The notes beneath the pieces were generated by a model. It did no database searches. It saw only the letters and a list, made by a program, of their open reading frames with translations, and was not told the DNA's origin. From IMG/VR virus record IMGVR_UViG_2563366825_000022, positions 1 to 14,028 of that record: a DNA stretch of 14,028 bases, one strand, 5' to 3'. Below, in pieces: positions 1 through 14,028 of the stretch; position 1 is the stretch's first letter; every line of letters begins with the position of its first letter. Both the position numbers and the translations under genes were made by a program. The DNA is from a virus (Duplodnaviria > Heunggongvirae > Uroviricota > Caudoviricetes).

Positions 1-1131
1 TCAAATGACCAGTTTTTTCCACTCTTTACCGCGTACATCGTTGTAAATATCGGTCATTTTTTGATTCGAATGACCCAGCAAAATTTGGGTATCAATTCCC
101 TGCTCCCTGAACAATCGCTCTGATAAAGATCTCTGCTCATGGAAAGAGGGTGGAGTGCCATTAGCGCGCCAGTTGTAATCCACAGAATCCCGGGCTTTTT
201 TAAATGCAACTGTCAACGTTGCTGGCTTAACCATCCCGCCGCGCTTAGCTGTCCCTTTAGCATGATGGTGGTGCAATAACCACGGACTAAGAACGCAATC
301 GCGACAGGATGACACTACATCATCCAGGGTGAGATTTAATTTATCGCAACGCAGAGCCAGAGGGATGGCAATCCGGGTTCCTGTTTTTTGCTGTTCGACA
401 TGAAGATAACCATCCCTGATATCCGAAAATTTCATTTTGCAAATATCTGAAAGGCGCTGGCCTGTCATCAGCGCTAGCAGCATACCACGCTGTAAAAAGT
501 AACCATCCTTTTCCGCTGCATTATAAATCATCATCCACTCATCAAAGGTCAGTCGTTGCCGTGATATCCGTACCTGTGGTTTTTTTGCCGATTCTGCAGG
601 GTTAAAGCCTGGCGAGACATCGCCCGTTTGCTGGGCCTCCCGGAAAACATCAATCAGTACTTTCCTGAAAATTTGTCCCATTCTGTTATGTCCTTTTGCC
701 TTGTAATCTTCCAGCACCGATACCACATCTTTTACGGTTATGGCATCTAATGGTCTGGTACCAAAACGTTCATCAAATACCCTGAGAGGGGATGCTTTCT
801 GTTTCAGTGTGTTGAGTTTGATCTCTCCGTTTTCATATCTTTCCTGTTGAATTTTTCGGTAACTATTCAGAAAAACAGAAACGGTTGATGAACCACCGGT
901 ATCACGAATAATTTTCTCCTGCAGAGTGAGCATTTGTTCCATTTGTTGCCTGGCAAGACGGCTGTTCGCTTCTGCTGCAATAGCTTCTGCCTGTTTCTGG
1001 TCAATACTGCCGAGCCCGTGATTTTTTCCTGTTATGGGATGCCTGTAACGCCAGTAAACTTTGTTATTTCTTTTGTCAAAATACGGAGATAATCCCGGAA
1101 CTTCAGTTTTATATTTTCGTGGGCGCGCCAT
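1..1131 (-). CDS. int: Phage tyrosine integrase (site-specific recombinase), 376 aa, complete
   Basis: Complete minus-strand ORF whose stop codon sits at 1-3. Length and C-terminal region (…LLGHSNQKMTDIYNDVRGKEW) fit lambda-type integrases with a catalytic Tyr near the C-terminus. Its start overlaps the excisionase ORF by 23 nt, as in int-xis modules. Confidence 0.9.
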   Translation of the reverse strand: MARPRKYKTEVPGLSPYFDKRNNKVYWRYRHPITGKNHGLGSIDQKQAEAIAAEANSRLARQQMEQMLTLQEKIIRDTGGSSTVSVFLNSYRKIQQERYENGEIKLNTLKQKASPLRVFDERFGTRPLDAITVKDVVSVLEDYKAKGHNRMGQIFRKVLIDVFREAQQTGDVSPGFNPAESAKKPQVRISRQRLTFDEWMMIYNAAEKDGYFLQRGMLLALMTGQRLSDICKMKFSDIRDGYLHVEQQKTGTRIAIPLALRCDKLNLTLDDVVSSCRDCVLSPWLLHHHHAKGTAKRGGMVKPATLTVAFKKARDSVDYNWRANGTPPSFHEQRSLSERLFREQGIDTQILLGHSNQKMTDIYNDVRGKEWKKLVI

Positions 1132-1357
1132 CTTCCAGTATCCTCTTCAAAGCAGGGGGATCTGTGGCGATCACTTCCGGCTTGTTTACCATTCCGACAA
1201 AGCGAGCTCGAGGATCCACTCGCCAGTGTCTTCCAACTTTTTTGGGGAGAGGAAATATCATTCCGGCTTTAGCGTATTTACTTAACGTGCCCGGAGTAGG
1301 GACCGGTTCACTGAATTCCTCTTTTGCCCACTCAGTGAGCAGAATAAGTCTTGCCAT
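1109..1357 (-). CDS. xis: Excisionase-like small DNA-binding protein (Xis), 82 aa
   Basis: Small basic ORF immediately upstream of int and overlapping it. The motif W..(7)..P…G.IFPLPKKVGRHWRV resembles the lambda Xis winged-helix signature. Confidence 0.65.
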   Translation of the reverse strand: MARLILLTEWAKEEFSEPVPTPGTLSKYAKAGMIFPLPKKVGRHWRVDPRARFVGMVNKPEVIATDPPALKRILEDGAPTKI

Positions 1358-1421
1358 GAGCGTTGTTCGCTAATCATGGCCGCCGCCATTATAGCTTGCG
1401 GACGACGACCGGGGTTGAACA

Positions 1422-3893
1422 TTAAAAATCAGCCTGACTCGGGATCAGTTTTTGCCAGATTGCTGAAACTTGTTTTGCCTGGTGACGGGCATCGTCCAGC
1501 GCATTGTGGGGTACGCCTTCGAATGGAATAGCCATTCTGACATCAAAGCCAATGGCATTACCCAGTTCAACGATTGTGCGTACATCGCGATCGTTGTAGT
1601 AAAGCCACGGGTAGGGGATCCCCTGCCGTTCATATGAACGGCGTAAAATTACGTTGTCGAAGTTGGCTCCATTTCCCCATATCTGAACAAAAAATTCACC
1701 GGAGTTTTCGTCGATAAATTCCCGCAATTGTAACAGTGCATCATCTAACGGGATTTCATCGGTCATAATGGCAGACTGCGCTTCACGTGATTGCTTCAGC
1801 CACCTTTTAATGACGTCACGATCAATGACTCCGCCAGCAGTTTCCAGATCGATAGTCTTACTAAATTCCGGTCCCATACCTCCGGTTTGCGGATCGAAAA
1901 ATATTGCACCTATTGAGATAATCGGGGCATCAGGATTTTTTCCCATGGTTTCAAGGCCTATCATTAGATGGTCACACGTCCTGCTGGTGGATGTGATTTC
2001 GTGATGACCGTTCACCTTAATTGAGTGATCTGCCGTCTCGCCAGTTTCATTATCGCTATCGTGATGCTGATTGCCGCCAGCATTCTCCTTGTGTGGATGT
2101 TCAGCGCCTTCCATTTTCTCCGGATCATCTTCCTGAACTTCAACCTGATACTCTTCATCGAATGTTTCCTGGTATGTTGCGTCGCCCATCACCGCGCCAC
2201 AATCAGGGCAGTTGCCGCCGCCGGTCTGACCGCAGGCGGTGCAGACTTTTTCCACTTCCTGTTGCGCCACTGGTTCAGGCTGTTTCGTTTCTGGCTCGTT
2301 TTGTAACGCATTTGGGCTGTTTTGTTCCGCTTTTTGGTAGTTCCGTTCCGATTCATGCTGGTTCTGGTTTACAGAATCGCGGGTCTGGATCCCCTTAACC
2401 CATTTCGGATCATTCGGGGCGCTAATCCCTTCAACAAATTCACCACGTGATACTGCAAGCAGTTCATCGGCGTCAGGCTGGCTGATATTGGCTGCCTGCA
2501 TAATTTTGTTTACTTCGTCAGCGGTAACTTTTACCGGCTCTGGTTGTGCGGTCGTGTCAGATGCACCAGTATTTTGTTGTGAACCTGAGTATGTACTGTT
2601 TTTGCGGGCGAAATATTCTTCTTTCGTGATTTCAGTAGCCCCGGCAGCCAGCGCCTTATCCAGACCAGAAAGTTTGTTTGCGCGACCGTATTTTTCGCCA
2701 TCCTTGTCGGTGAAGAGGAAGTAGAACGGCCCCTCACGCTCTACAGATGGTTCGACTTCCACTTTGCATTCGGTTTTTTCGTTGTCCGGAATTGCCGTTT
2801 CCACTGCATCAGTTTCTGGTACTGGCGACGAGAGAGTATCAGTTGCGCTCTGATTTGTTCCTTCATCTTCAAACACGCCCTTTGTAGTCAGGTATTCAGT
2901 AATGTATTTGTTCAGTGCCACAGGGTCTTTGTGAATGTCGATCGGACGTTCACGGACAAGGCCAAAAATAGTCTGGCGGTCGTAGCGAAGGGCATCAGGC
3001 TGTTTGCGCATTGATGCCGAGATACGCTTCCAGTCTTCGCGGTCGTTGTCGATAACTTCATTTTTTGCCCAGCGATGGATGCTGCCGTCAATGTTTCCGG
3101 CATCCACATCACCAGGCCAGAGAGCGTAGGCCAGTTCGTCATCCAGTGTTTTCCATGTCTGCTTGTATTCGCGATGAATGGTAGCAATGACCGGGCTGAT
3201 TTTTCCTGTTGAATTTTCAGTGTGCTGTTGATTGGTTCTGGCGCGGGCGAGATCAACAACAGACGTGTATTTTCCGGTTTCCTTGCGTTCACCTTCGCGA
3301 CGTTTTTTCCAGATGCGCATCTCTGCCTGAATTTCGGGCCATTTGGCACCAGGCTTACATTTATGCTTAACCCACCCGATGGCATGCAGCTTAAGCTCCG
3401 GATACATGGCGTTAACTTCTGGCATTTTCATCAACGCTTCAACGATATGTCCGTCGAATGTTGCCATGTCTTCCTGCAACAATTCCTGTGCGCTAATAAC
3501 CATATCAACGGTGATGTTTTCACATGTGTCGAACTTAACCATGACAGCGTTCTGTACTTCAGGGGCCAGCTTGTCAAAAGTGACGTTCATCGGATCTGAT
3601 TCAGTCTCAACCGGGACAAAGGAAGCAGACTCCTCATCCCAGCGGTTTTCCTGCATATATTCAGCATCCCAGGAATCGAGGGCAGGGCGGGGTATGCCGG
3701 GTTTATCCTCACAGACAATAAATTTATAAGCGCAGTCCTGAGCTGCAGGGAATTGCTCCAGAAATTGCCAATGAAATTTTGCGCGTGCGCGACGCTCATC
3801 ACCGGCTTCAATGGCAGTGGCCACCGCAACAGCGCTATCTTCTTTTATGGCCTGTTCATCAGGAATAGCAGCGCAAATAAAGACCTTACTCAT
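1422..3893 (-). CDS. RecE/YdfE-family prophage exonuclease, 823 aa, with a central zinc ribbon and a C-terminal DnaQ-like (DEDDh) 3'-5' exonuclease domain
   Basis: Long ORF with SD-like GAGGT upstream of ATG 3893. N-terminus MSKVFICAAIPDE… matches what I recall of YdfE/RecE N-terminal regions. It has an acidic linker and CTACGQTGGGNCPDCG (CxxC…CxxC). C-terminus carries Exo II-like GNGANFDNVIL and Exo III-like HNALDDARH motifs. Confidence 0.8.
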   Translation of the reverse strand: MSKVFICAAIPDEQAIKEDSAVAVATAIEAGDERRARAKFHWQFLEQFPAAQDCAYKFIVCEDKPGIPRPALDSWDAEYMQENRWDEESASFVPVETESDPMNVTFDKLAPEVQNAVMVKFDTCENITVDMVISAQELLQEDMATFDGHIVEALMKMPEVNAMYPELKLHAIGWVKHKCKPGAKWPEIQAEMRIWKKRREGERKETGKYTSVVDLARARTNQQHTENSTGKISPVIATIHREYKQTWKTLDDELAYALWPGDVDAGNIDGSIHRWAKNEVIDNDREDWKRISASMRKQPDALRYDRQTIFGLVRERPIDIHKDPVALNKYITEYLTTKGVFEDEGTNQSATDTLSSPVPETDAVETAIPDNEKTECKVEVEPSVEREGPFYFLFTDKDGEKYGRANKLSGLDKALAAGATEITKEEYFARKNSTYSGSQQNTGASDTTAQPEPVKVTADEVNKIMQAANISQPDADELLAVSRGEFVEGISAPNDPKWVKGIQTRDSVNQNQHESERNYQKAEQNSPNALQNEPETKQPEPVAQQEVEKVCTACGQTGGGNCPDCGAVMGDATYQETFDEEYQVEVQEDDPEKMEGAEHPHKENAGGNQHHDSDNETGETADHSIKVNGHHEITSTSRTCDHLMIGLETMGKNPDAPIISIGAIFFDPQTGGMGPEFSKTIDLETAGGVIDRDVIKRWLKQSREAQSAIMTDEIPLDDALLQLREFIDENSGEFFVQIWGNGANFDNVILRRSYERQGIPYPWLYYNDRDVRTIVELGNAIGFDVRMAIPFEGVPHNALDDARHQAKQVSAIWQKLIPSQADF

Positions 3894-3988
3894 TTTGTTT
3901 TAACCTCATTACAGATTTCAGGGTGAACGAATCCCTGCCATTGCTGGCATTTTTAATCCGTTGGTATGGTGTTAATATGGCTGGAGGG

Positions 3989-4177
3989 TTATCCAGCCGG
4001 TGTTTCGTTATTCAGGTACAGCGATACTTTTTTTACCGGGAGGCATTCACCAGAAATTTTTTGCTCGTCTCTTGCCTGGAGGCAGGATTCTTTACTGGCA
4101 TAAATTCCGGTAATCACATTCTGTGATTCACCCGTTATAAGAAAAACCGTCATCATCAGTGCAAATGCTGAAGTCAT
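3989..4177 (-). CDS. ydfD: Small membrane protein, YdfD-like (lysis-associated protein of the dicB operon), 62 aa
   Basis: Hydrophobic N-terminus (MTSAFALMMTVFLITG) and two Cys. Start is translationally coupled to the upstream ORF by an ATGA overlap at 4174-4177. Position directly downstream of dicB and size match Qin ydfD; the symbol is assigned by synteny only. Confidence 0.55.
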   Translation of the reverse strand: MTSAFALMMTVFLITGESQNVITGIYASKESCLQARDEQKISGECLPVKKVSLYLNNETPAG

Positions 4178-4362
4178 TGACGTTCTCCGAAAATACCAAG
4201 TTCAAGAAGAGCAATTCGGGAAAGTATGGAATTATCATTGAGCAGATAAGGCTCATATTTCCTCATATTAATGGCATCTTCAGTAAACTCCCGGTTACTG
4301 AGCAGAACACCAATATCAAAACAACCTTCAGACGTATTAACGTTTGGTAATAACGTTTCCAT
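4174..4362 (-). CDS. dicB: Cell-division inhibitor DicB, 62 aa (the ORF track extends to a GTG at 4467, which has no SD)
   Basis: Internal ATG at 4362..4360 is preceded by GAGGA with a 7-nt spacer. Product METLLPNVNTSEGCF… is 62 aa, matching DicB as I recall it. It lies immediately downstream of DicF, as in Qin. Confidence 0.7.
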   Translation of the reverse strand: METLLPNVNTSEGCFDIGVLLSNREFTEDAINMRKYEPYLLNDNSILSRIALLELGIFGERQ

Positions 4363-4536
4363 TATCGCGTCCTCAACAATGAATTTTGTGATGCAGTGCC
4401 TGGTGCCTCCAGGTGACGTTAACCAGTTAACAATTAACGCCGGATACAGAGAATCCACCCATAACACTGTTTTTGGTTTTAACTGTTCCGCGTGCGCTTA
4501 GCCGCATTCACCGCATCACAAAATTCACTTTAAAAA

Positions 4537-4589
4537 GGGCGGCAGAGCAGTCACGGAGTAAAACTGATACCGCCAAACGTCACCAGAAA
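4537..4589 (-). ncRNA. dicF: DicF small regulatory RNA (Hfq-dependent sRNA targeting ftsZ and other mRNAs), with an intrinsic terminator tail
   Basis: Minus-strand sequence UUUCUGGUGACGUUUGGCGGUAUCAGUUUUACUCCGUGACUGCUCUGCCGCCC followed by UUUUU matches the DicF sequence from memory. It ends in a GC-rich hairpin plus U-run and lies between the ydfC-like ORF and dicB. Confidence 0.8.
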
Positions 4590-4930
4590 ATTGATAACAG
4601 AGGGCGTTGCAGCGGGGTTGTCACTTAAGCGTATGGTCAACCTGACAACCCGGTGTCCTCAACGGGGGAAGAAATAACCCCGCCATACTTACCGCCGCAC
4701 CATTTCGCGGGTTGCCACAACCGGAAGCGCACGGTCGACGAAAATTTAACGACAGGCTATCTATGAACCAGCTACCTCGCCGTGCGCTTTCGCGTTATGG
4801 TCTGACTTTTCAGGGAAATATCCTTTCAGTAAACTGTCAGTGCCGGATGCTCACCCGCGTCCGGCGCACGCACTCCACCTCACCCGTGGAGAACTACTTA
4901 ATTACCAACCTTAGCTTCGTTGGTTAGCTA

Positions 4931-5149
4931 TTAACGCGGGTATGTAATCATTCTGGCAATGCTTAATGCCGCTGCTTTTTCCAGCCTGGTGATATCCTGC
5001 TCCAGAGCGGACAGATTTTCAGCCTGCTTAGCCCTGGCTTCATTGGCCCATTTCAAATCCTGCGCTGCATTAATTTTCTGGCGCATCCACTCATAAAGTT
5101 CATTATCGGTATAGTCTGGAGCGATGATGACGGGTTCTCGTTTCTGCAT
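4931..5149 (-). CDS. ydfC: Small hypothetical protein, YdfC-like by position and size, 72 aa
   Basis: Complete ORF in the minus-strand early-left operon, between the YdfB-like ORF and DicF. Assigned by synteny and length only. Confidence 0.5.
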   Translation of the reverse strand: MQKREPVIIAPDYTDNELYEWMRQKINAAQDLKWANEARAKQAENLSALEQDITRLEKAAALSIARMITYPR

Positions 5150-5178
5150 ACTGATTCCTCGCGGTGCTGTTTCGCTTA

Positions 5179-5307
5179 TCAGCCGTTAGATTTTGCCGAA
5201 CTGAAAAGCACCTGTTTAAATTCGTTGAAGCTGTGAGCTTCTTCGCCTTCGGCAAGGCCTTCGAAGTATTCTTCGTAAGCCTTTTCCATGATTGTGTCAA
5301 AATCCAT
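5179..5307 (-). CDS. ydfB: Small acidic protein, YdfB-like by position and size, 42 aa (below the ORF-track cutoff)
   Basis: Hand-translated minus-strand ORF MDFDTIMEKAYEEYFEGLAEGEEAHSFNEFKQVLFSSAKSNG. Its ATG at 5307..5305 sits 1 nt after the stop of the upstream ORF, with AGGTGA upstream. Stop TGA at 5181..5179. Confidence 0.45.
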   Translation of the reverse strand: MDFDTIMEKAYEEYFEGLAEGEEAHSFNEFKQVLFSSAKSNG

Positions 5308-5308
5308 A

Positions 5309-5464
5309 TCACTCACCTGAGTTTCTTTCCAGCCAGCGACGGGCACCATTTTCGGTTTTAAACGTTTTGCTTTTGGTATACGTCATCGCGGTGAACGTAC
5401 CGTCCTGGTTGGGGAACACGCCACATACCAGAGATTCGCTGTTGCCAAGATCGATAGTATCCAT
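5309..5464 (-). CDS. ydfA: Small hypothetical protein, YdfA-like, 51 aa from the internal ATG (the ORF track's alternative start at 5545 gives 78 aa)
   Basis: First ORF downstream of the leftward early promoter. ATG at 5464 has GAGG with a 5-nt spacer; ATG at 5545 has GAGG with a 9-nt spacer. The 51-aa form matches YdfA in size. Confidence 0.5.
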   Translation of the reverse strand: MDTIDLGNSESLVCGVFPNQDGTFTAMTYTKSKTFKTENGARRWLERNSGE

Positions 5465-5643
5465 GCTGACCTCATTTCCCCTTAACGCCGGGGTAGCGGA
5501 ACAAAAACCTGCTGCATAGTTATTAAAGTTGAACCCTGCCGTCATGTTCTTACGCCTCGGGCTGGCTACTTAACCCCTGACCACTGCCTGGTAACTCGAA
5601 GTATTGCCCTGCATTCTGTGGGGTGGGGAGAGGGAATGAATGA

Positions 5644-5691
5644 AGTTTAGAAAAATGAACTTTTCAGGTCAATGTTTTTTTATCAAAACAT
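5644..5691 (-). promoter_or_regulatory. Putative leftward early promoter (pL-like) with overlapping operator palindrome (oL-like)
   Basis: On the minus strand, TTGACC, a 17-nt spacer, then TAAACT. Perfect inverted repeat AATGTTTT-N5-AAAACATT at 5671-5691 overlaps the -35 and shares the ATGTTTT half-site with the palindrome at the cI start. Confidence 0.4.
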
Positions 5692-5756
5692 TTTAAGCAG
5701 GCAGCTGTTAAGCCATCACCACGATGGCATACAGTTAATCAAATAGATGAGGTCGG

Positions 5757-6395
5757 TTAAATATCTTGTTGAATTTTAAAGCATACGCCCAATATGCAAG
5801 ATAGATCATCCAGCATAATTGAAGGGTAGCGAGGATTCGTGGGGACTAAAAGAATATCCGGCCCTTCTATCTCCAGTTTACGAATGACAGGTGTTGTGGT
5901 CCCTTTGGGTAAGGCAAGGACAATATTTCCTGGTTGTACGGTTCGATCGGGATCAACAAAAACTGTTGAACCATTTGGGATGGAAACTCCCCCACCAGAT
6001 GTTGACATACTGTCACTCTCTAGAACAACTGCAAAGGTATTGGCCGGGATTTCTCCGACAAGCTGCACACAAGAGGTTATTGAGGAATTTTTCATATAAT
6101 CACTCCAGCTTGCTGCCTGCTGAAGTGATAGTAGCGGAACCGTTTTTATCAGCGGTAAAGATAGATCAAGCGAATCACCTGTATTTAACTCTCCTCCATT
6201 AAGAAGCCAATTTTCGTTTACTTTCAATATTTTTGCCAGTGAACTTATGTAACGCGAGGACGGCGCTCCTCCACCGTTCATCCATTGACTTACGGAGCCT
6301 TTTGATGCGCCAGTGGCATTGACAAGGTCTTTGCCTTTCAGGTTTAGCGCATGCATACGTTGGGTTATGCGTTCAGATATTGTTTGCTTGCTCAT
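5757..6395 (-). CDS. CI-type prophage repressor, 212 aa: N-terminal HTH plus C-terminal S24 (LexA-like) autopeptidase domain
   Basis: N-terminal HTH-like region (…GASKGSVSQWMNGG…) and C-terminal S24-like segment with a Ser (ESDSM) and downstream Lys (IRKLE). Divergent from the cro-like gene. No SD before the ATG, consistent with a leaderless transcript. Confidence 0.85.
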   Translation of the reverse strand: MSKQTISERITQRMHALNLKGKDLVNATGASKGSVSQWMNGGGAPSSRYISSLAKILKVNENWLLNGGELNTGDSLDLSLPLIKTVPLLSLQQAASWSDYMKNSSITSCVQLVGEIPANTFAVVLESDSMSTSGGGVSIPNGSTVFVDPDRTVQPGNIVLALPKGTTTPVIRKLEIEGPDILLVPTNPRYPSIMLDDLSCILGVCFKIQQDI

Positions 6396-6458
6396 GTTTT
6401 GATTTTAAAACACAGATGGTTTTGTTTCTTGACTTTCTTTGGTTTTGATTATTAAACT
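6396..6458. promoter_or_regulatory. Immunity-region operator/promoter cluster (oR-like sites with divergent pR-like and pRM-like promoters)
   Basis: Palindrome GTTTT-N6-AAAAC at 6396-6411 abuts the cI ATG, with a related repeat GTTTTGATTATTAAAC at 6442-6457. Plus-strand TTGACT at 6430-6435 with TATTAA/ATTAAA downstream. Minus-strand TAAAAT lies 6 nt upstream of the cI ATG. Confidence 0.4.
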
Positions 6459-6486
6459 TTTGGCGTTCAGTTTTATGGAGCGACTC

Positions 6487-6729
6487 ATGAAAAAATCAGA
6501 AGTATTAGGCTATTTTGGCGGAGTTGTTAAAACAGCCGCAGCTCTAGGAACGTCAAAAACCACAGTCAGCATGTGGGGGGAAGAGGTTCCGTGGAAATGG
6601 GCGTTGCTAATTCAGGCAGTCACTGCCGGGGCGCTCAAATATGAGTTACACATACCGACGGTTGTCATTCCCGGTTCTGATCATAATCCGCCTTCTAACC
6701 AAGGGGGGATTCATGAAAATCAAGCATGA
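6487..6729 (+). CDS. Cro/YdaS-like small HTH regulator, 80 aa
   Basis: GGAG sits 6 nt upstream of ATG 6487. HTH-like segment VVKTAAALGTSKTTVSMW. Divergent from the repressor across the operator region. The ORF track's TTG start at 6439 has no SD. Confidence 0.75.
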   Translation: MKKSEVLGYFGGVVKTAAALGTSKTTVSMWGEEVPWKWALLIQAVTAGALKYELHIPTVVIPGSDHNPPSNQGGIHENQA

Positions 6730-7138
6730 ACACATCCGCATGGCGATGAATGCCTGGGCGCGTCCTGATGGCGAAAAAGTTCCGGCAGCTGGAATAACCC
6801 AGGCTTATTTTGAGTTGGGTATGACGTTTCCTGAACTGTACGACGACAGCCATCCGGAAGCCCTGGCTCGCAATACCCAGAAAATTTTCCGCTGGATAGA
6901 GAAAGACACCCCTGATGCAGTTGAAAAAATTCAGGCGTTGTTACCAGCTATCGAAAAAGCAATGCCACCTCTGCTGGTGGCCCGAATGCGCAGTCATAGC
7001 TCAGCCTATTTTCGGGAACTAGTGGAGACGCGGGAGCGACTGGTGAGAGACGCTGATGATTTTGTCGCAGTGGCAATCGCCGGTTTCAATCAGATGAACC
7101 GTGGTGGCCCGGCAGGAAATGCTGTGGCAGTGCATTGA
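6713..7138 (+). CDS. YdaT-like protein (proposed CII-type regulator, formerly annotated as a toxin), 141 aa
   Basis: SD AAGGGGGG precedes ATG 6713, which overlaps the cro-like stop by 17 nt. N-terminus MKIKHEHI… matches what I recall of YdaT. Sits in the cro-cII-O positional order. Confidence 0.6.
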   Translation: MKIKHEHIRMAMNAWARPDGEKVPAAGITQAYFELGMTFPELYDDSHPEALARNTQKIFRWIEKDTPDAVEKIQALLPAIEKAMPPLLVARMRSHSSAYFRELVETRERLVRDADDFVAVAIAGFNQMNRGGPAGNAVAVH

Positions 7139-7208
7139 GTGATAATAGCCATATCGAATCGCTTCCGGCAACTCGTGAGTAAAAGATTCGGTATCAGAAG
7201 AGGTGAGT

Positions 7209-8291
7209 ATGGCTAACGCCTGGCTCAGATTATGGCATGACATGCCAAATGACCCTAAGTGGCGAACAATTGCCAGAGTGTCAGGGCAGCCAATTGCAAC
7301 AGTGATGGCAGTGTATATCCACCTCCTGGTGAGCGCGTCACGAAATGTCACGCGAGGTCACATTGATGTCACGACAGAAGATTTGGCAAGTGCGCTCGAC
7401 GTGACAGAAGAGGTAATTGATTCAATTTTGCAGACGATGCAGGGGCGGGTACTTGATGGTGATTTAATCACTGGATGGGAAAAACGCCAGGTGCTTAAAG
7501 AGGACAACGGCAATATTTCGCAAACCGCAAAATCTCCTGCAGAGCGCAAGAGGGCGCAGCGAGAGAGGGAAAGAAAGCGGGAACAAAATGGCGATTGTCA
7601 CGGCGCGTCACGAAATGTCACGCACATGTCACGACGAGTCACGACAGATAAAGATACAGATAAAGATACAGATAAAGATACAGATCAAGAAGATCAAAAC
7701 ACTATGGTCCATGGCGTAAAAAACGCCACGAACCAGGCAGGGGATGTTCAGACCGTCAATCTTGGTCAGCCAGCAGGCACGACACCGGAAGCCGATTCAG
7801 CGTATGCGCTGAAAGCCGATTCGGGCGCTGTGCAGCAGGTGATGACCGCAAGGCCGGAGCAATCACACCAACTGCAGCAGCCCGAAGCCGATTCCGCCAT
7901 TCAGCGGGAAGCCGATCGGGTAGTCCCGGAAAACACCGGGCAGTCTGTGGGACGAGTGGATTATCCGGATGTGTTCGAACAGGTCTGGCGGGAGTACCCG
8001 TTGCGTGCCGGAGCAAACCCGAAGAAATCCGCTTTCAGTGCCTGGAAGGCCAGATTACGCGAGGGGGTGCCACCAGAAGCCATGCTGGATGGCGTGAGGC
8101 GTTACGCAAGATACTTGGCGGCTACCGGGAAAACGGGAACGGAATTTGTTCAGCGAGCGACGACGTTTTTTGGACCGGACCGGAATTTTGAGAACCCCTG
8201 GTTGCTCCCGGTAAGCGGCACGAACAACCAGCGTTGTGTGAATCATATTTCTGAACCGGATAACGAAATTCCGCCGGGCTTCAGGGGGTAA
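7209..8291 (+). CDS. Replication initiator, O-like/YdaU-type (DUF1376-like N-terminus), 360 aa, with an internal origin-like region
   Basis: GAGGTG precedes ATG 7209 (the ORF track starts at GTG 7203). N-terminal WLRLWHDMPNDPKWRTIA motif resembles the family I recall as DUF1376. Iteron clusters and a DKDT-repeat linker lie inside the gene, as lambda ori lies inside O. Confidence 0.7.
   Translation: MANAWLRLWHDMPNDPKWRTIARVSGQPIATVMAVYIHLLVSASRNVTRGHIDVTTEDLASALDVTEEVIDSILQTMQGRVLDGDLITGWEKRQVLKEDNGNISQTAKSPAERKRAQRERERKREQNGDCHGASRNVTHMSRRVTTDKDTDKDTDKDTDQEDQNTMVHGVKNATNQAGDVQTVNLGQPAGTTPEADSAYALKADSGAVQQVMTARPEQSHQLQQPEADSAIQREADRVVPENTGQSVGRVDYPDVFEQVWREYPLRAGANPKKSAFSAWKARLREGVPPEAMLDGVRRYARYLAATGKTGTEFVQRATTFFGPDRNFENPWLLPVSGTNNQRCVNHISEPDNEIPPGFRG
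7337..7373. repeat. Iteron-like cluster 1: four GTCACG/GTCACA hexamers at 10-11 bp phasing
   Basis: Hexamers at 7337, 7347, 7357 and 7368. The surrounding 21-nt string GCGCGTCACGAAATGTCACGC is repeated exactly at 7603-7623. Confidence 0.6.
7597..7643. repeat. Iteron-like cluster 2: five GTCACG hexamers at 10-11 bp phasing, adjacent to an AT-rich tandem repeat (putative ori core)
   Basis: Hexamers at 7597, 7607, 7617, 7628 and 7638, followed directly by an AT-rich repeat. The layout mirrors lambda ori (iterons plus AT-rich region inside the initiator gene). Confidence 0.6.
7647..7682. repeat. 12-bp perfect tandem repeat (GATAAAGATACA) x3, encoding a DKDT-repeat linker
   Basis: Three exact copies followed by a degenerate copy (GATCAAGAAGATCAAAAC). 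AT-rich, immediately 3' of iteron cluster 2. Confidence 0.8.
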
Positions 8292-8331
8292 GTGTTAATT
8301 TCTGGTCATGAGGTAATTTTCAGGAGGGCTT

Positions 8332-8757
8332 GTGGCAAAAGTTTTTACACAAGAAGAGCGGGAAAAAATTAAAGGGCAGGTTGTTGAACTCGTACGCCAG
8401 AGTGGGCGCGAGACGTTACGACAACTGGAAGCTAAAACTGGGGCAACAAGATATCTGATGAGCGTTCTTGCCAGAGAACTGGTAGCCAGTGGCGATGTAT
8501 ACAACTCCGGCTGCGGATTATTCCCGTCTGAACAGGCGCGTAAGGACTGGCAAAATGCCCGCAAAAAACTCTCAAGGGCAAAGGTGAAGAAACCTGCAGT
8601 GGTTGATCCGGACCTTATCTGGTCGTTACCAGACGGCGAAATACGCCGCTACGACAGGCGTCTGAATATAATCTGTCGCGAGTGCCGGAAGAGCGAAGCT
8701 ATGCAGCGTGTACTGGCATTTTATCAAGGAAATGTTAGGTATTTTAGACGTTACTAG
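8332..8757 (+). CDS. Hypothetical basic protein, 141 aa, in the position normally held by the helicase loader (P/DnaC-like)
   Basis: AGGAGG lies 4 nt upstream of GTG 8332. Lys/Arg-rich with a possible HTH-like stretch (ATRYLMSVLARELVASG). I recognise no family from the sequence. Confidence 0.55.
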   Translation: MAKVFTQEEREKIKGQVVELVRQSGRETLRQLEAKTGATRYLMSVLARELVASGDVYNSGCGLFPSEQARKDWQNARKKLSRAKVKKPAVVDPDLIWSLPDGEIRRYDRRLNIICRECRKSEAMQRVLAFYQGNVRYFRRY

Positions 8758-8910
8758 ATTAAAGAGCATTAGTTCAGATGTGAATTGACATTTTCATGGC
8801 GCAGGGTAGAGCCAGCGTGGTTGTCCGCTTTGCGTCAAAACCAGATATTACCAGATTTAGACATATATTCCCGATAGCCCTGCTCTGATGCTACACTCTG
8901 TGCTATTTTC

Positions 8911-9597
8911 ATGACCCCAATAAAAATATTTATGACTATTGCTGATTTCAAACGGCCTAAATTGGAGCTCCCAAACGGGGCAAACAAACTACTACTGCAC
9001 TCTTGCTGTGCTCCATGTTCCGGTGAAGTGATGGAGGCGCTTCAGGCCTCGGGAATCGACTACACCATCTTTTTCTACAACCCGAACATTCATCCTCAGA
9101 AAGAGTATTTAATTCGTAAGGATGAAAATATTCGCTTTGCTGAACAACACGGCGTGCCGTTTATCGATGCTGATTACGACACCGACAACTGGTTTGAACG
9201 TGCCAAAGGAATGGAATGGGAGCCTGAGAGGGGGATCCGTTGTACCATGTGTTTTGACATGCGTTTTGAGCGGACAGCGTTGTACGCTGCTGAAAATGGT
9301 TTCAGTGTGATCAGCAGTTCACTGGGCATTTCGCGCTGGAAAAATATGCAGCAGGTTAACGAGTGTGGGCGGCGAGCTGTTGCGCATTATCCGGGTATGG
9401 TATACTGGGATTATAACTGGCGCAAGCAGGGCGGCTCGTCCCGTATGATTGAAATCAGCAAGCGCGAAAAATTCTATCAGCAGGAATATTGTGGCTGTGT
9501 GTATTCTCTGCGCGATACCAATCTACACCGCAAATCTCAGGGACGCCCTCTTATCAAAATTGGCCAACTCCACTACGGAAAAGAAGAGAAGGAGTGA
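8911..9597 (+). CDS. queH: QueH-like protein (DUF208; epoxyqueuosine reductase family, Fe-S), 228 aa
   Basis: N-terminal [11 protein letters not shown] motif followed by FFYNPNIHP, with further Cys pairs ([14 protein letters not shown]), fits my recollection of DUF208/QueH. No clear SD; alternative ATG at 8932. Preceded by a 150-bp intergenic region. Confidence 0.6.
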
Positions 9598-9834
9598 TTT
9601 TATGGATCACCTTTCTGATTGATTTCATATTGGCGAGGTGACGTGAGTTAAGTAGAATTGCTGCGGGTGCTTGAGGCTATCTGCCTCAGGCATGAACACC
9701 AAAAGGCAGATAGAGAAAAGCCCCAGTTAACATTACGCGTCCTGCAAGACGCTTAACATTAATCTGAGGCTCAATCCATGCTGAACACATGTAGGTTAGC
9801 CTCTTACGTGCCGAAAGGCAAGGAGAAGCAGGCT

Positions 9835-9990
9835 ATGAAGCAGCAAAAGGCGATGTTAATCGCCCTGATCGTCATCTGTTTAACCGTCATAGTGACGGCA
9901 CTGGTAACGAGGAAAGACCTCTGCGAGGTACGAATCCGAACCGGCCAGACGGAGGTCGCTGTCTTCACAGCTTACGAACCTGAGGAGTAA
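9835..9990 (+). CDS. hokD: Hok/Gef-family type I toxin (HokD/RelF-like), 51 aa
   Basis: AAGGAGAAG precedes ATG 9835. Product MKQQKAMLIALIVICLTVIVTALVTRKDLCEVRIRTGQTEVAVFTAYEPEE has the Hok transmembrane helix and conserved C-terminal region. The ORF track's in-frame extension from ATG 9778 may be a mok-like leader frame. Confidence 0.85.
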   Translation: MKQQKAMLIALIVICLTVIVTALVTRKDLCEVRIRTGQTEVAVFTAYEPEE

Positions 9991-10058
9991 GAGACCAGGC
10001 GGGGGAGAAATCCCTCGCCACCTCTGATGTGTCAGGCATCCTCAACGCACCCGCACTT

Positions 10059-10086
10059 AACCCGCTTCGGCGGGTTTTGTTTTTTC
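10059..10086 (+). terminator. Intrinsic terminator downstream of hok
   Basis: Hairpin CCCGC-TTCG-GCGGG followed by TTTTGTTTTTT. Confidence 0.65.
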
Positions 10087-10157
10087 CTGGCATTCTGGTT
10101 TACAATTCGCACGCCAGCCTGAACAACTGGCACCTGCTGCGCCAGCAGAGACAACCG

Positions 10158-10436
10158 ATGGCGCACGATACCAAATTATACAATTCTGATAATTCTGCCG
10201 TCTTTGCCAGCAGGTGCGGGCGGCGTTCTCATGCATTCAAATCTGACAGGTTACAGCACGCCCCATGCACTGAAGAACAGGCCGAATGGCTGATTCAGTG
10301 TTACCGCAGGCGTGGATACGAGGTTAAGAAAGCCCTCAGCCTCGATTATCGTCACTGGATAATCTACGTCAGGCTGCCGTACTCCGAGCGCCCACCGCGT
10401 CCGTCCCGCACATTCCAGCAACGCATCTGGAGGTAA
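10158..10436 (+). CDS. Rem-like small protein, 92 aa
   Basis: Internal ATG of ORF 10029..10436, chosen because the hok terminator lies inside the upstream part of that ORF. Sits between hok and the DUF968 gene, as rem does in Qin. Weak SD. Confidence 0.45.
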   Translation: MAHDTKLYNSDNSAVFASRCGRRSHAFKSDRLQHAPCTEEQAEWLIQCYRRRGYEVKKALSLDYRHWIIYVRLPYSERPPRPSRTFQQRIWR

Positions 10437-10437
10437 C

Positions 10438-11496
10438 GTGCGGGTATTACTTCGACCTGTTCTGGTACCGGAACTCGGGCTGGTGATCGTTAAGCCGGGC
10501 CGTGAATCCATGCCGGTATTCCACAATACCCGGGTACTGGTGGAGCCGGAACCGAAAAGCATGCGTAATCTGCCGTCCGGGGGCGTTCCTGCCGTTCGCC
10601 AGCCGCTGGCGGAGGATAAATCATTACTGCCATTTTTCAGCGACGAACGAGTGATTCGTGCTGCTGGTGGCGCTGGCGCATTGTCTGACTGGTTACTGCG
10701 CCATGTTAAATCCTGCCAGTGGCCACACGGCTATTATCATCACAGCGAAACCGTCATTCACCGTTATGGTACCGGCGCAATGGTGTTGTGCTGGCACTGC
10801 GACAACCAGCTGCGTGACCAGACATCCGAATCACTCGAGCAACTTGCTCATCAAAACCTGTCAGCATGGATGATTGACGTCATCGGTCACGCAATAAGCG
10901 GTACGCAGGAGCGTGAATTATCTCTGGCTGAATTATCCTGGTGGGCGGTCTGCAATCAGGTAGCGGACGCACTACCGGAGGCTGTATTACGCCGCTCACT
11001 GGGATTACCGGCGGAGAAAATCCGCTCGCTTTATCGCGAGAGCGACATCATACCGGGAGAGCAGACAGCCACCAGCATACTGAAGCAGCGCACAAAAAAT
11101 ATTGCGCTACCACTTCACGCCCACCAGCAACAAATCCGGCCACAGGAAAAGACGGTGGTCAGCATTGCCGTTGATCCGGAGTCACCGGCTCAGTATCTCC
11201 AGCGCCAGAAACCACAACGGGAAGAGATGCCTGTATACACGCGCTGGGTAAAAACGCAGAAATGCATGACGTGCGGTAATCAGGCAGATGATCCGCATCA
11301 CATCATTGGTCATGGACTGGGAGGGATGGGAACAAAGGCTGACGATTTGTTTGTTATTCCGTTGTGCCGTAAATGCCATAACAAACTACATGCCGGAGTA
11401 AAAGATTTTGAAGAAAAACACGGCAGTCAGCTGTTGTTGCTGATTCGTTTTTTAATGCACGCGAGAAATTCGGGTGTTCTGAAGTGGAAAGCATAA
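10438..11496 (+). CDS. DUF968/YdfU-like protein with a C-terminal HNH-type zinc-finger nuclease motif, 352 aa
   Basis: GGAGG precedes GTG 10438. C-terminus CMTCGNQADDPHHIIGHG…CRKCHNKLH has the CxxC…HH…CxxCH…H pattern of HNH nucleases. Synteny with rusA and Q. Confidence 0.7.
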   Translation: MRVLLRPVLVPELGLVIVKPGRESMPVFHNTRVLVEPEPKSMRNLPSGGVPAVRQPLAEDKSLLPFFSDERVIRAAGGAGALSDWLLRHVKSCQWPHGYYHHSETVIHRYGTGAMVLCWHCDNQLRDQTSESLEQLAHQNLSAWMIDVIGHAISGTQERELSLAELSWWAVCNQVADALPEAVLRRSLGLPAEKIRSLYRESDIIPGEQTATSILKQRTKNIALPLHAHQQQIRPQEKTVVSIAVDPESPAQYLQRQKPQREEMPVYTRWVKTQKCMTCGNQADDPHHIIGHGLGGMGTKADDLFVIPLCRKCHNKLHAGVKDFEEKHGSQLLLLIRFLMHARNSGVLKWKA

Positions 11497-11877
11497 ATGA
11501 CCGAACGCATAGAATTTGTTTTGCCTTACCCGCCGACGGTGAACACTTACTGGCGACGCCGTGGCAGCACATATTTTATCTCGGAGGAGGGAAAGCGTTA
11601 TCGCCGGGCTGTGGCGCTTATTGTTCGCCAGCAGCGGCTGAAATTAAGCCTGTCCGGAAGGCTGGTAATCAGGATTATTGCAGAGCCACCGGATAAGCGT
11701 CGTCGTGACCTGGACAATATTCTGAAAGCACCGCTGGATGCGCTGACGCACGCGGGGTTGTTAATGGACGATGAGCAGTTTGATGAAATCAATATTGTAC
11801 GTGGCCAGCCAGTATCTGGTGGACGTCTGGGGGTGAAGATTTACCCCATAATGCTTGAAGGGCAGGTCAAAAAATGA
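11497..11877 (+). CDS. rusA: Holliday-junction resolvase RusA, 126 aa
   Basis: Motifs LPYPPTVNTYWRRRG, EGKRYR and PDKRRRDLDNILKAPLDALTHAG match the RusA family. Start abuts the upstream stop; the stop overlaps the Q-like start (ATGA). Confidence 0.85.
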   Translation: MTERIEFVLPYPPTVNTYWRRRGSTYFISEEGKRYRRAVALIVRQQRLKLSLSGRLVIRIIAEPPDKRRRDLDNILKAPLDALTHAGLLMDDEQFDEINIVRGQPVSGGRLGVKIYPIMLEGQVKK

Positions 11878-12695
11878 AACTGGAAGATTTACCGAAATAC
11901 TACTCCCCAAAATCCCCCGGCCTGACTGATGCATCGGCCTCAACGTCGAAAGATGCGCTGAGTATCACTGATGTGATGGCCGCGCAGGGCATGACACAGA
12001 ATCGGGCTGAGATGGGGTTTTCTGCGTTCCTTGGGAAAATGGGCATTAGTATGAATGACAGAGAGCGGGCAACAGAATTGCTGACAGAATATGCACTCAG
12101 TCGGTGTGATCGCGTGGCGGCGTTAAGAAAACTCCCGGCAGAAATAAAACCGGCAGTGATGCGTATTATGGCTTCGTATGCGTTTGAAGATTATGCCCGT
12201 AGCGCGGCGAGCAAAAAACAGTGCCCCTGCTGTCACGGAAAAAAATTTATTGAAAGCGAGGTTTTTACAAACAAGATCCAGTATCCGGATGGTAAGCCGC
12301 CAGTGTGGGCAAAGTGCACAAAAGGCGTGTATCCGTCTTACTGGGAGGAATGGAAAAAAGTCAGGGAGGTGGTAAAAGTTGCCTGTCCGGAGTGTGGAGG
12401 GAAGGGAGAGGTATCCACTGCCTGTAAAGATTGTCGTGGGCGCGGTGTTGCCATTCATCGTGAAGAGTCGGAAAAACAGGGTGTGCCGGTTTTCAGAAAC
12501 TGTCAGCGTTGTGGTGGGCGTGGCTATGAAAGATTACCTTCAACGGAGGCATTTAATGCCATATGTAATGTAACCGATGCCATATCTCTTGATACATGGA
12601 AAAAAACAGTTAAACGTTTTTACGATACGCTGGTGGTGCAGTTTGATATTGAAGAAGCATGGGCAGAACAACAACTGAAAAAGGTGACCAGATAG
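11874..12695 (+). CDS. Late-gene antiterminator Q-like protein (QuuQ-type) with four DnaJ-like CxxCxGxG zinc-finger repeats, 273 aa
   Basis: Positioned immediately upstream of a promoter plus intrinsic terminator. Repeats CPCCHGKKF, CPECGGKGE, CKDCRGRGV and CQRCGGRGY. N-terminus MKLEDLPKYYSPKSP resembles what I recall of QuuQ. Confidence 0.6.
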   Translation: MKLEDLPKYYSPKSPGLTDASASTSKDALSITDVMAAQGMTQNRAEMGFSAFLGKMGISMNDRERATELLTEYALSRCDRVAALRKLPAEIKPAVMRIMASYAFEDYARSAASKKQCPCCHGKKFIESEVFTNKIQYPDGKPPVWAKCTKGVYPSYWEEWKKVREVVKVACPECGGKGEVSTACKDCRGRGVAIHREESEKQGVPVFRNCQRCGGRGYERLPSTEAFNAICNVTDAISLDTWKKTVKRFYDTLVVQFDIEEAWAEQQLKKVTR

Positions 12696-12700
12696 CTTTG

Positions 12701-12728
12701 TTGATTTTTCCCGAATCTGTGGTAAATT
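12701..12728 (+). promoter_or_regulatory. Putative late promoter (pR'-like) with extended -10
   Basis: TTGATT, a 16-nt spacer, then TGgTAAATT, 6 nt after the Q-like stop and about 50 nt upstream of an intrinsic terminator. Confidence 0.4.
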
Positions 12729-12776
12729 TGCCCTAACGATGGGCGTTTTATGCCTGACGTTAGAAGATTTTTTACA

Positions 12777-12800
12777 CCCCGCCGCCTGGCGGGTTTTTTA
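12777..12800 (+). terminator. Intrinsic terminator (tR'-like) downstream of the putative late promoter
   Basis: Hairpin CCCGCC-GCCT-GGCGGG followed by TTTTTTA. Confidence 0.65.
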
Positions 12801-12921
12801 TGACTGAAATCGCGTCAGTACAGTAAACGCGCTGGTGGCGGTGAATACCTGTCTTTCAGCTTGCTGGCTTTTTCGACAAGAGTTATTGGTGTGTCACGTT
12901 AACCGGAAAAGGGAAAAAGAC

Positions 12922-13119
12922 ATGCTGAAACAGCAGGATATGACCGAAACCGCCAGAGTGGTGTTTAATGAATTAAGTGCCACCGAACCGGCGACAGTCG
13001 GGGAGATTGCGCAGAATACTTACCTTTCACGTGAACGCTGCCAGTTAATACTGACCCAGCTTGTTATGGCGGGGCTGGCAGACTATCAGTTCGGTTGTTA
13101 CAGACGCCTTCAGTCCTGA
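12922..13119 (+). CDS. Small hypothetical protein, possibly winged-helix DNA-binding, 65 aa
   Basis: Internal ATG of ORF 12835..13119, whose GTG start has no SD. Segment TVGEIAQNTYLSRERCQLILTQLVMAGL looks like an HTH/wHTH. Weak SD; the stop lies inside a terminator hairpin. Confidence 0.4.
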   Translation: MLKQQDMTETARVVFNELSATEPATVGEIAQNTYLSRERCQLILTQLVMAGLADYQFGCYRRLQS

Positions 13120-13131
13120 AGGCTTTTTTAT
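13105..13131 (+). terminator. Intrinsic terminator overlapping the stop of the small ORF
   Basis: Hairpin GCCTTCAG-TC-CTGAAGGC followed by TTTTTTATTTG. Confidence 0.55.
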
Positions 13132-13269
13132 TTGTGGTAAATGGGCGACTGGTGGGTGTTAGGGGCACTCACCAGCCATCTGCTCATGCGTCCGGATCAC
13201 AAGCAAACCTCAGGCCCACTGCTTTGCGCAAAAGCAGAATGAGCCTATCAGAGACAGGCTTAATGATCC

Positions 13270-14028
13270 ATGCTTAGTACTGTAAAAATATCCAGTTGTG
13301 AGTTAATCAACGCCGACTGCCTGGAATTTATCCGGTCGTTACCCGAAAATTCTGTTGACCTGATAGTCACGGACCCGCCGTACTTTAAAGTGAAGCCTGA
13401 GGGCTGGGATAACCAGTGGAAGGGCGACGATGATTACCTGAAGTGGCTGGACCAGTGTCTTGCGCAGTTCTGGCGGGTGCTGAAACCTGCCGGAAGTCTT
13501 TACCTGTTCTGTGGCCATCGCCTGGCGTCTGACATTGAAATCATGATGCGTGAACGCTTCAATGTGCTGAACCATATTATCTGGGCGAAGCCGTCCGGAC
13601 GCTGGAACGGGTGCAACAAGGAAAGCCTGAGGGCATATTTCCCCGCCACAGAGCGCATTCTGTTCGCGGAACATTATCAGGGGCCGTATCGCCCGAAAGA
13701 TGCCGGGTATGAGGCGAAGGGCAGGGCACTGAAACAGCATGTGATGGCCCCGCTGATTTCTTACTTTCGTGATGCGCGTGCTGCCCTGGGGATAACGGCA
13801 AAACAGATTGCTGATGCCACAGGAAAGAAAAACATGGTGTCGCACTGGTTCAGTGCCAGCCAGTGGCAGCTACCGGACGAAAGCGATTATCTGAAATTAC
13901 AGGCGCTGTTTGCCCGGGTGGCAGAAGATAAGCATCAGCGCGGAGAACTGGAAAAGCCACATCACCAACTGGTCAGCACATACAGTGAACTGAACCGGCA
14001 GTATACGGAACTGCAGAGTGAATATAAG
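13270..14028 (+). CDS. DNA amino-methyltransferase (beta-class N6-adenine or N4-cytosine, DPPY motif), 3'-truncated by the window end
   Basis: Hand-translated open frame from ATG 13270 to the window end (253 codons, no stop). It is absent from the ORF track because it has no stop. N-terminus …CLEFIRSLPENSVDLIVTDPPYF… then VLKPAGSLYLF. An in-frame TGA lies just upstream of the ATG. Confidence 0.8.
   Translation, partial: MLSTVKISSCELINADCLEFIRSLPENSVDLIVTDPPYFKVKPEGWDNQWKGDDDYLKWLDQCLAQFWRVLKPAGSLYLFCGHRLASDIEIMMRERFNVLNHIIWAKPSGRWNGCNKESLRAYFPATERILFAEHYQGPYRPKDAGYEAKGRALKQHVMAPLISYFRDARAALGITAKQIADATGKKNMVSHWFSASQWQLPDESDYLKLQALFARVAEDKHQRGELEKPHHQLVSTYSELNRQYTELQSEYK

Follow-up and report, generated by a model that had tools for sequence, protein, structure and literature searches.

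Two hexamer arrays and an AT-rich tract in a phage initiator gene

The stretch of DNA analysed here (the window) comprises 14,028 nucleotides of a Caudoviricetes virus, positions 1 to 14,028 of the IMG/VR record IMGVR_UViG_2563366825_000022. Its subject is a gene for a replication initiator, or 'replisome organizer', in which two arrays of a short repeat and an adjoining AT-rich tract are embedded. The gene (7209–8291, plus strand) was taken from the list of open reading frames (ORFs) and its translation; it starts with ATG at 7209, is preceded by a good ribosome-binding site (GAGGTGA) and encodes 360 amino acids (aa). The full-length product matched PHROG 3729, 'replication initiation protein' (E = 4e-256), and the label carried by 98%-identical proteins at NCBI, 'phage replisome organizer', agrees with the PHROG annotations. 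The 90%-identity protein cluster to which the initiator belongs contains 5,786 sequences, mostly from E. coli and Shigella.

Array 1 (7337–7373, plus strand) consists of four direct units of the form (T/C)GTCAC(G/A), which begin at 7337, 7347, 7357 and 7368 in steps of 10, 10 and 11 bp. Array 2 (7597–7643, plus strand) holds five perfect GTCACG copies at 7597, 7607, 7617, 7628 and 7638 (steps of 10, 10, 11 and 10 bp). The starts of the two arrays are separated by 260 bp, and ~230 bp lies between the arrays. These positions and spacings agree with an earlier description made from the letters alone (hereafter the sequence-only reading), which had counted four plus five GTCACG copies at 10–11 bp intervals in clusters ~260 bp apart. 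However, the copy it had taken as the fourth of the first cluster (7357–7362), the third in order along the gene, is GTCACA, one mismatch in the window at a unit that is perfect in most homologues. It had also missed a unit in inverted orientation (7400–7405, minus strand; CGTGAC on the plus strand), which lies 32 bp past the last direct unit of array 1. GTCACG occurred 17 times in the window compared with 5.4 ± 2.4 expected, a count reached in none of 200 shuffles; 9/17 copies sit in 7337–7643 and there was no second cluster elsewhere in the 14 kb. Tandem Repeats Finder reported array 2 as a period-10 array at 7596–7646.

The AT- and purine-rich tract (7644–7700, plus strand), a proposed DNA unwinding element, adjoins array 2 and encodes DKDTDKDTDKDTDQEDQN. 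It contains three perfect copies of GATAAAGATACA (7647–7682), the first of which begins 3 nt after the final array-2 hexamer; the three 12-bp repeats abutting the second cluster had been described correctly from the letters. Tandem Repeats Finder scored a period-12 array at 7644–7690 (3.9 copies, 97% matches). The segment 7648–7697 is the least stable 50-mer of the window (nearest-neighbour ΔG −54.3 versus a mean of −69.1, standard deviation 4.4) and the sole stretch of the window that is both AT-rich and purine-rich. A scan of viral contigs returned 80 near-identical E. coli-type loci, which are of no use for covariation and were used solely for copy-number polymorphism. Across 82 near-identical E. 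coli/Shigella prophage copies (L007–L088), the number of GATAAAGATACA copies ranged from 1 to 4 (mode 2), whilst the arrays were constant at 4 + 5 units. The three copies in the window are therefore one allele of a length polymorphism.

Several smaller features accompany the tract. Two GATC (Dam) sites, at 7683–7686 and 7692–7695, lie 9 bp apart at its distal end, and GATC is found in the tract of several homologues too, e.g. AGATCTAAAAGAT in Aeromonas and Sphingomonas loci. Directly after the tract is an inverted repeat with a 13-bp stem (TGGTCCATGGCGT-AAAAA-ACGCCACGAACCA; 7705–7735, no strand assigned), which came from the terminator-like scan on the minus strand. Save for this hairpin, scanning for promoters and terminators in and near the arrays gave nothing above shuffle expectation. 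Phage lambda likewise has a palindrome beside its AT-rich region. One E. coli initiator of 302 aa (P0019; four contigs) carries a natural in-frame deletion from the interior of array 2 (…CHGAS) to …PEADSAY, which takes out most of array 2 and the entire AT tract; the carrier is possibly a cryptic prophage whose origin is dead.

In the AlphaFold2 model, the N-terminal winged-helix-like domain (aa 1–97; 7209–7499, plus strand; block pLDDT about 65–90), presumed to bind the iterons, comprises helices at aa 2–14, 16–25 and 29–45, a loop at 46–55, helices at 56–63 and 67–77, and a beta wing at 78–88. It is followed by a basic helix (aa 110–126), a disordered linker (aa 128–248, pLDDT <50) and a C-terminal helical domain (aa 250–336) with a 24-aa tail (together 7956–8288, plus strand; block pLDDT 89–96 over aa 251–330), presumed to be the helicase-recruiting part. 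Array 1 encodes aa 43–56 (ASRNVTRGHIDVTT), that is, the end of helix 3 and the loop preceding the helix-turn-helix. Array 2 encodes aa 130–145 within the disordered linker, and array 2 and the tract together encode aa 130–164.

A Pfam scan of the full protein at E ≤ 0.01 returned no family. At E ≤ 5 only Phage_rep_org_N and generic helix-turn-helix families were matched, and the lambda O family was not among the matches. The N-terminal domain aligned with positions 1–119 of the 121 in Phage_rep_org_N (PF09681; E = 0.012), its 16.0 bits being below the gathering score of 23.3, and this match was seen in only one of seven diverse family members tested. A Foldseek search of the model against the PDB gave no significant match (best E = 1.2), only generic winged-helix regulators being listed. 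The lambda-style origin inside gene O put forward in the sequence-only reading thus holds, by analogy, for the in-gene layout; it does not hold for the protein, which by Pfam is not a lambda O homologue.

Upstream of the initiator gene lie a cI-like gene (5757–6395, minus strand), a Cro-like gene (6439–6729) and a YdaT/CII-like gene ending at 7138; an integrase and a RecE-like exonuclease are also encoded in the window. From these neighbours we identify the region as a lambdoid prophage's early-right operon, of Rac-like type. Domain and PHROG scans of the window found no phage helicase or loader gene directly after the initiator, the next gene (8332–8757) being DUF977/Ren-like (PHROG 142). Further downstream, 8911–9597 encodes a QueH-like epoxyqueuosine reductase homologue (PF02677, E = 1e-65), odd cargo for a prophage early region.

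Conservation and change of the arrays among homologues

Relatives of the initiator were found on >540 viral contigs and in 60 bacterial species. The comparison set, drawn from a wide range of Proteobacteria and from phages, comprised about 60 homologous genes; these sequences are related, so that shuffle P values overstate their independence. A further 60 loci came from scanning a single genome for each bacterial species. Both arrays were kept at equal gene positions in most of the ~60 homologues, which included Escherichia, Pseudomonas, Aeromonas, Bordetella, Serratia, Ralstonia, Burkholderia, Sphingomonas and other genera (29–99% protein identity). Array-1 units were fixed at gene nt 129/139/149/160 in about 40 homologues, and array 2 was present in nearly all, immediately 5′ of the AT tract. 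In nearly all 60 species-scan loci, the best phased 6-mer of the gene's first 700 nt fell into two clusters (about nt 129–170 and 340–450). Pseudomonas phage phita81A and its relatives, and Aeromonas phage pAEv1818, whose N-terminal domains are 70% identical, retained both arrays and the tract. Many homologues of the GTCACG type had an inverted unit at gene nt 192. The comparison with related prophages that the sequence-only reading had called for, one cluster or two, thus came out in favour of both. Its impression that a duplicated cluster is unusual was mistaken, as two arrays are the commonest state in the initiator family.

Constraint on the array-1 hexamers was assessed at synonymous sites in 22 non-redundant homologues sharing the GTCACG unit (mean nucleotide identity 67%). 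Third codon positions within these hexamers were 0.97 conserved, in comparison to 0.52 in 33 other codons for conserved amino acids (Mann–Whitney, P = 7e-6). Conservation ended at the edges of hexamers and not of codons, the third bases of R45, R49 and T56 being only 0.41 conserved, and the GTG codon of the inverted unit was 100% conserved among sequences encoding Val. This pattern points to array 1 being held by selection on the DNA.

The tract, universal behind array 2 in this comparison, showed a comparable signature. In 49 homologues, the 40 nt following the last array-2 unit had an AT content of 0.67 and a purine content of 0.75 on the coding strand, versus 0.44 and 0.56 gene-wide (P ~1e-9), and the tract junction, (C/T)AGATAAAGA, was conserved across many loci. 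Third-position A/T was 0.77 in the tract versus 0.37 in the rest of the gene, and 0.38–0.92 versus 0.20–0.29 in GC-rich hosts. Because third-position A/T is kept against GC-rich host bias, we infer that the composition of the tract is selected at the DNA level, beyond the coding of an acidic and lysine-rich peptide.

These results bear directly on the outcome by which the sequence-only reading would have been undone, namely codon-level protein repeats without conservation of the DNA. That the repeats serve the protein only and have no role as DNA is now barely credible. The 12-bp repeat is in frame, reading (DKDT)n within a disordered, low-complexity linker, and 'ASRNVT' is found in both array-encoded peptide segments, as such an account would predict. 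The hexamers, however, recur every 10–11 bp and use all three codon phases (2,0,1,0 in array 1; 1,2,0,2,0 in array 2), being translated as VT, SR or (C/G)H according to frame, and are therefore not a codon-level repeat. Furthermore, the synonymous constraint follows hexamer boundaries, the peptide shifts with the unit (NVT, NAT, SANATERG) and the AT-richness of the tract is kept at third positions against host usage.

The unit itself differed between lineages (GTCACG, GTAACG, GTGACG, GCAACG and CGAACG(C)), and within a lineage the unit of array 1 was that of array 2. A phage from spring water, with 44% identity across the N-terminal stretch that aligned, had CGAACGC in both arrays. Ralstonia phage Hennie, 37% identical, had GCAACG in both, and its inverted copy shifted to CGTTGC, the counterpart seen in GCAACG-type homologues. 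The best phased 6-mers, chosen independently for each region, agreed in 40/51 loci (shuffled mean 13.2, maximum 25 in 10,000 trials), and most of the mismatches were technical, the AT-tract repeat having won in region 2. On a rough protein tree, with the iteron-encoded loop removed, the unit types were interleaved, which argues that several independent changes hit both arrays together.

Some loci departed from this uniformity. L106 mixed GTAACG with GTGACG/GTCACG, whereas other loci were pure for one type in both arrays, and hexamer position 3 may be loosely read in the L106 clade. A view of GTCACG versus GTAACG as clear specificity switches was dropped, since some loci (L106) mix these units. 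In L135, CGAACG (three copies) stands beside GTGACG (two to three copies) in array 1, at gene nt about 100–200, and array 2 is pure GTGACG; this locus may represent a transitional state of a unit switch. In L134, from a Gemmataceae metagenome-assembled genome, the upstream array (four copies of CGAACGC at gene nt 194–224) lies in the sequence encoding the helix-turn-helix, not the loop.

The N-terminal domain, both arrays and the tract travel as one block, joined to varied C-terminal domains and helicase genes. Among E. coli relatives only the C-terminal half was common with other phages, and in the Pseudomonas and Aeromonas phages only gene nt 12–464 was shared; helicase genes follow the initiator homologues in Pseudomonas, Aeromonas and Ralstonia phages. 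This joint inheritance of arrays and N-terminal domain is the main reason, an indirect one, for assigning the units to that domain. N-terminal and C-terminal modules are swapped at a junction that coincides with the inverted repeat at 7705–7735.

The array-1 loop grows by iteron steps. Some E. coli, E. albertii and O157 variants (P0003, P0022, P0085, P0106; L088) have gained 7 aa (TCHGVSR/L), which corresponds to exactly 21 bp or two units (10 + 11), the least that can be added without leaving the reading frame, and Pseudomonas loci carry as many as 10 units.

A candidate origin and the role of array 1

On balance, we consider it very probable that this segment holds a prophage origin within the gene of its own initiator, and fairly probable that the fuller reading applies, in which a lambdoid (Rac-like) prophage replicates from here with array 1 as an accessory. 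By analogy, array 2 and the tract look like a lambda-style core origin placed in linker-coding sequence, and array 2 is proposed as the main initiator landing pad. The N-terminal winged-helix domain would bind the direct (T)GTCACG units, whose spacing of one helical turn would align the bound initiators on a single face of the DNA. Initiator loaded on array 2 would melt the adjoining tract (7644–7700), after which the host helicase would be recruited by the initiator's C-terminal part. Array 1 (7337–7405, counting its four direct units and the inverted one), within the coding sequence of a variable surface loop, is most plausibly an accessory array, another place at which this initiator would bind. 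Cooperation with array 2 is probable, by way of protein–protein contacts that loop or wrap the intervening ~230 bp, and would render firing of the origin more cooperative or more strongly cis-acting. An accessory role is proposed because some lineages are without array 1. Of the options raised in the sequence-only reading for the second cluster, a second initiator-binding array is thus favoured and a recombination scar is ruled out, given the conserved position of array 1 in dozens of diverged homologues, the co-change of its unit and the synonymous constraint. The third option, an autoregulatory site, is the main rival.

The C-terminal tail (aa 337–360; 8217–8288; …ISEPDNEIPPGFRG) resembles the extreme C-terminus of the E. 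coli primosomal protein DnaT. The matches were weak (NCBIfam PRK02854 positions 156–179, E = 7.7e-4; PDB 6aep, E = 0.003; also 2ru8 and 9zbt). A weak match to the DnaT tail was all that the NCBIfam scan of the initiator returned, and the same tail was the sole match in a sequence search of solved structures. The IPxGFRG ending was kept in many homologues. As the window has neither a phage helicase gene nor a loader gene after the initiator, the tail may recruit the host helicase machinery through DnaT mimicry.

Three points temper the case for an origin organised in this way. About ten homologues that retain array 2 and the tract are missing array 1, their loop being short (…SxxxERG…), and array 1 therefore cannot be essential. 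The winged-helix domain is identified as reader of the units by co-inheritance alone, and a search for protein columns tracking unit type outside the iteron-encoded loop gave nothing decisive, the top columns being trivial (encoded by the inverted unit) or following phylogeny. Finally, inter-array distances clustered near multiples of ~10 bp (R = 0.53, P ~4e-4, 27 distinct values), which suggests that the arrays are kept on one face and act together, but the loci are related, in-frame indels come in 9 or 12 bp and array ends depend on their definition, each of which could produce such clustering, and physical phase is not fixable over about 25 helical turns.

It is possible, if rather unlikely, that array 1 instead exerts negative control, with initiator bound in its own gene blocking the early rightward RNA polymerase or handcuffing origins. 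Array 1 would then limit initiator synthesis or re-initiation, as extra iteron arrays do in plasmids. Both arrays do lie inside the transcribed initiator gene, en route to the downstream genes, and array 1 is not only dispensable in some lineages but can outnumber array 2 (10 versus 5 units in L144). Control arrays often outnumber origin arrays, and P1 incA is an extra iteron array that limits replication. The comparative evidence for binding (position, constraint and unit co-change) serves this account equally well. However, a temperate phage that replicates lytically has little evident need of copy-number limitation, an integrase is encoded in the window and no plasmid-maintenance gene was found among the scanned ORFs. 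Co-orientation of the arrays and the apparent ~10-bp distance clustering are consistent with a joint complex, and also with a repressive loop. As to the sign of the effect of array 1, the data fit both a helper (P4 crr-like) and a restraint (P1 incA-like, or a roadblock) and do not discriminate between them.

Explanations that give array 1 no initiator-related role fare worse. We regard it as improbable that array 1 is a functionless by-product of array 2, generated by slippage or gene conversion in a loop that tolerates sequence change. The loop varies both in length and in sequence and gains units by iteron steps, scattered lineages lack array 1, L134 has its extra array elsewhere in the gene and L135 mixes two unit types, all of which slippage or conversion would accommodate. 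Set against this, units of 6–7 bp with unrelated 3–4 bp spacers are a poor conversion substrate over 230 bp, and the array-1 positions, with their 10, 10, 11 steps, are fixed across 57–87% nucleotide identity. The conservation of synonymous sites within the units also speaks against it, as does the stability of near-identical E. coli copies at 4 + 5 units whilst the adjacent 12-mer varies freely. Binding by another protein or process (a parC-type centromere, a packaging site or a host factor), with the position in this gene incidental, is very improbable. The parC of plasmid R1 has arrays of 10–11 bp units in two blocks, which the two blocks here resemble, and co-inheritance is all that ties the winged-helix domain to the units. 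Nevertheless, in otherwise unrelated phages the arrays accompany the N-terminal domain, and where that domain has diverged they have changed; a host factor is unlikely, since units differ both inside host groups and from one group to another; no partition gene was found among the window ORFs scanned; and the abutting unstable tract fits an origin.

Returning to the origin with an accessory array 1, a quite unlikely extension of it would make the array-1-encoded loop itself part of the surface that reads the iterons, the same nucleotides doubling as site and specificity code. If true, site and reader would shift at one stroke whenever a change spread from one array to the other, a self-referential shortcut to new origin specificities. 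This could explain the many unit types among similar proteins, e.g. L111 versus L106/L109, and L117 in the GTCACG clade.

Comparison with known origins

Origins inside an initiator gene are classical. In ori-lambda, iterons followed by a 39-bp region of high AT content lie inside gene O (PMC6022878). The present segment resembles it in being a candidate in-gene origin, in the part coding for the linker between DNA-binding and helicase-recruiting domains, with the AT-rich tract on one side (PMC6022878). More iterons lengthen the protein, as in lambda and the Stx phages 933W and P27 (PMC7466680), and in-frame changes of copy number in the AT tract are tolerated here as in lambda ori95/96 (PMC6022878). 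However, the lambda iterons are inverted repeats of about 18 bp that are bound by initiator dimers (PMC6022878), whereas the units here are direct, with cores of 6–7 bp and a period of 10–11 bp. Also unlike lambda, the second array lies in the coding sequence of the DNA-binding domain and no P-like loader gene follows.

In SPP1 oriL, the repeats bound by the replisome organizer G38P and an AT-rich unwinding element are located inside gene 38 (PMC6316719). Gene 38 (L147, 9940–10027) had one central repeat region next to an AT-rich repeat (AAACGACAGAGAAACG / AAAAGACACAGAAACG, then three copies of AACAATGATAACAA). Its repeats hold a GAAACG motif, reminiscent of the …AACG cores in the family of the window's initiator. 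No sequence similarity was detectable between G38P and that initiator. In contrast to the window, the second SPP1 origin (oriR) is far away and not a second in-gene array, and loader and helicase are both phage-encoded in SPP1.

Two separate arrays of the same iteron, served by one initiator through looping or pairing, occur in P4 (ori/crr), P1 (incC/incA) and R6K, where P4 crr is a required distant enhancer and P1 incA a control locus. The two separate arrays of an identical iteron found here are akin to the bipartite P4 and P1 systems. The arrays of P4, P1 and R6K, however, are kilobases apart or flank genes and are not dual-coded with a DNA-binding domain, and their initiators are unrelated. 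The origins of the SaPIs have short penta- or hexanucleotide iterons, variable in number, which are read by a winged-helix domain and matched to the cognate initiator (PMC9371898). Short, direct and one helical turn apart, the units here are closer in that respect to these than to lambda. Unlike in the window, SaPI iterons lie downstream of rep in two opposed sets flanking an AT-rich centre, and the SaPI initiator is itself a helicase.

In the literature searched, namely papers open without subscription, there was no description of an origin for this initiator family or of an in-gene, dual-coded second array. What is new in comparison to the classical arrangement is the second array, dual-coded with the DNA-binding domain and co-changing with the main array through at least five unit types. 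If true, this would be a clear case of a DNA signal dictating the amino-acid sequence of a protein loop. The matched pairs of initiator and origin could supply orthogonal parts for engineering, and would represent a natural panel of initiator/iteron pairs in which to study how winged-helix domains read DNA and how replicon specificity and incompatibility evolve. Finally, this reading, if true, would define the origin of a very common, unstudied prophage replication module.

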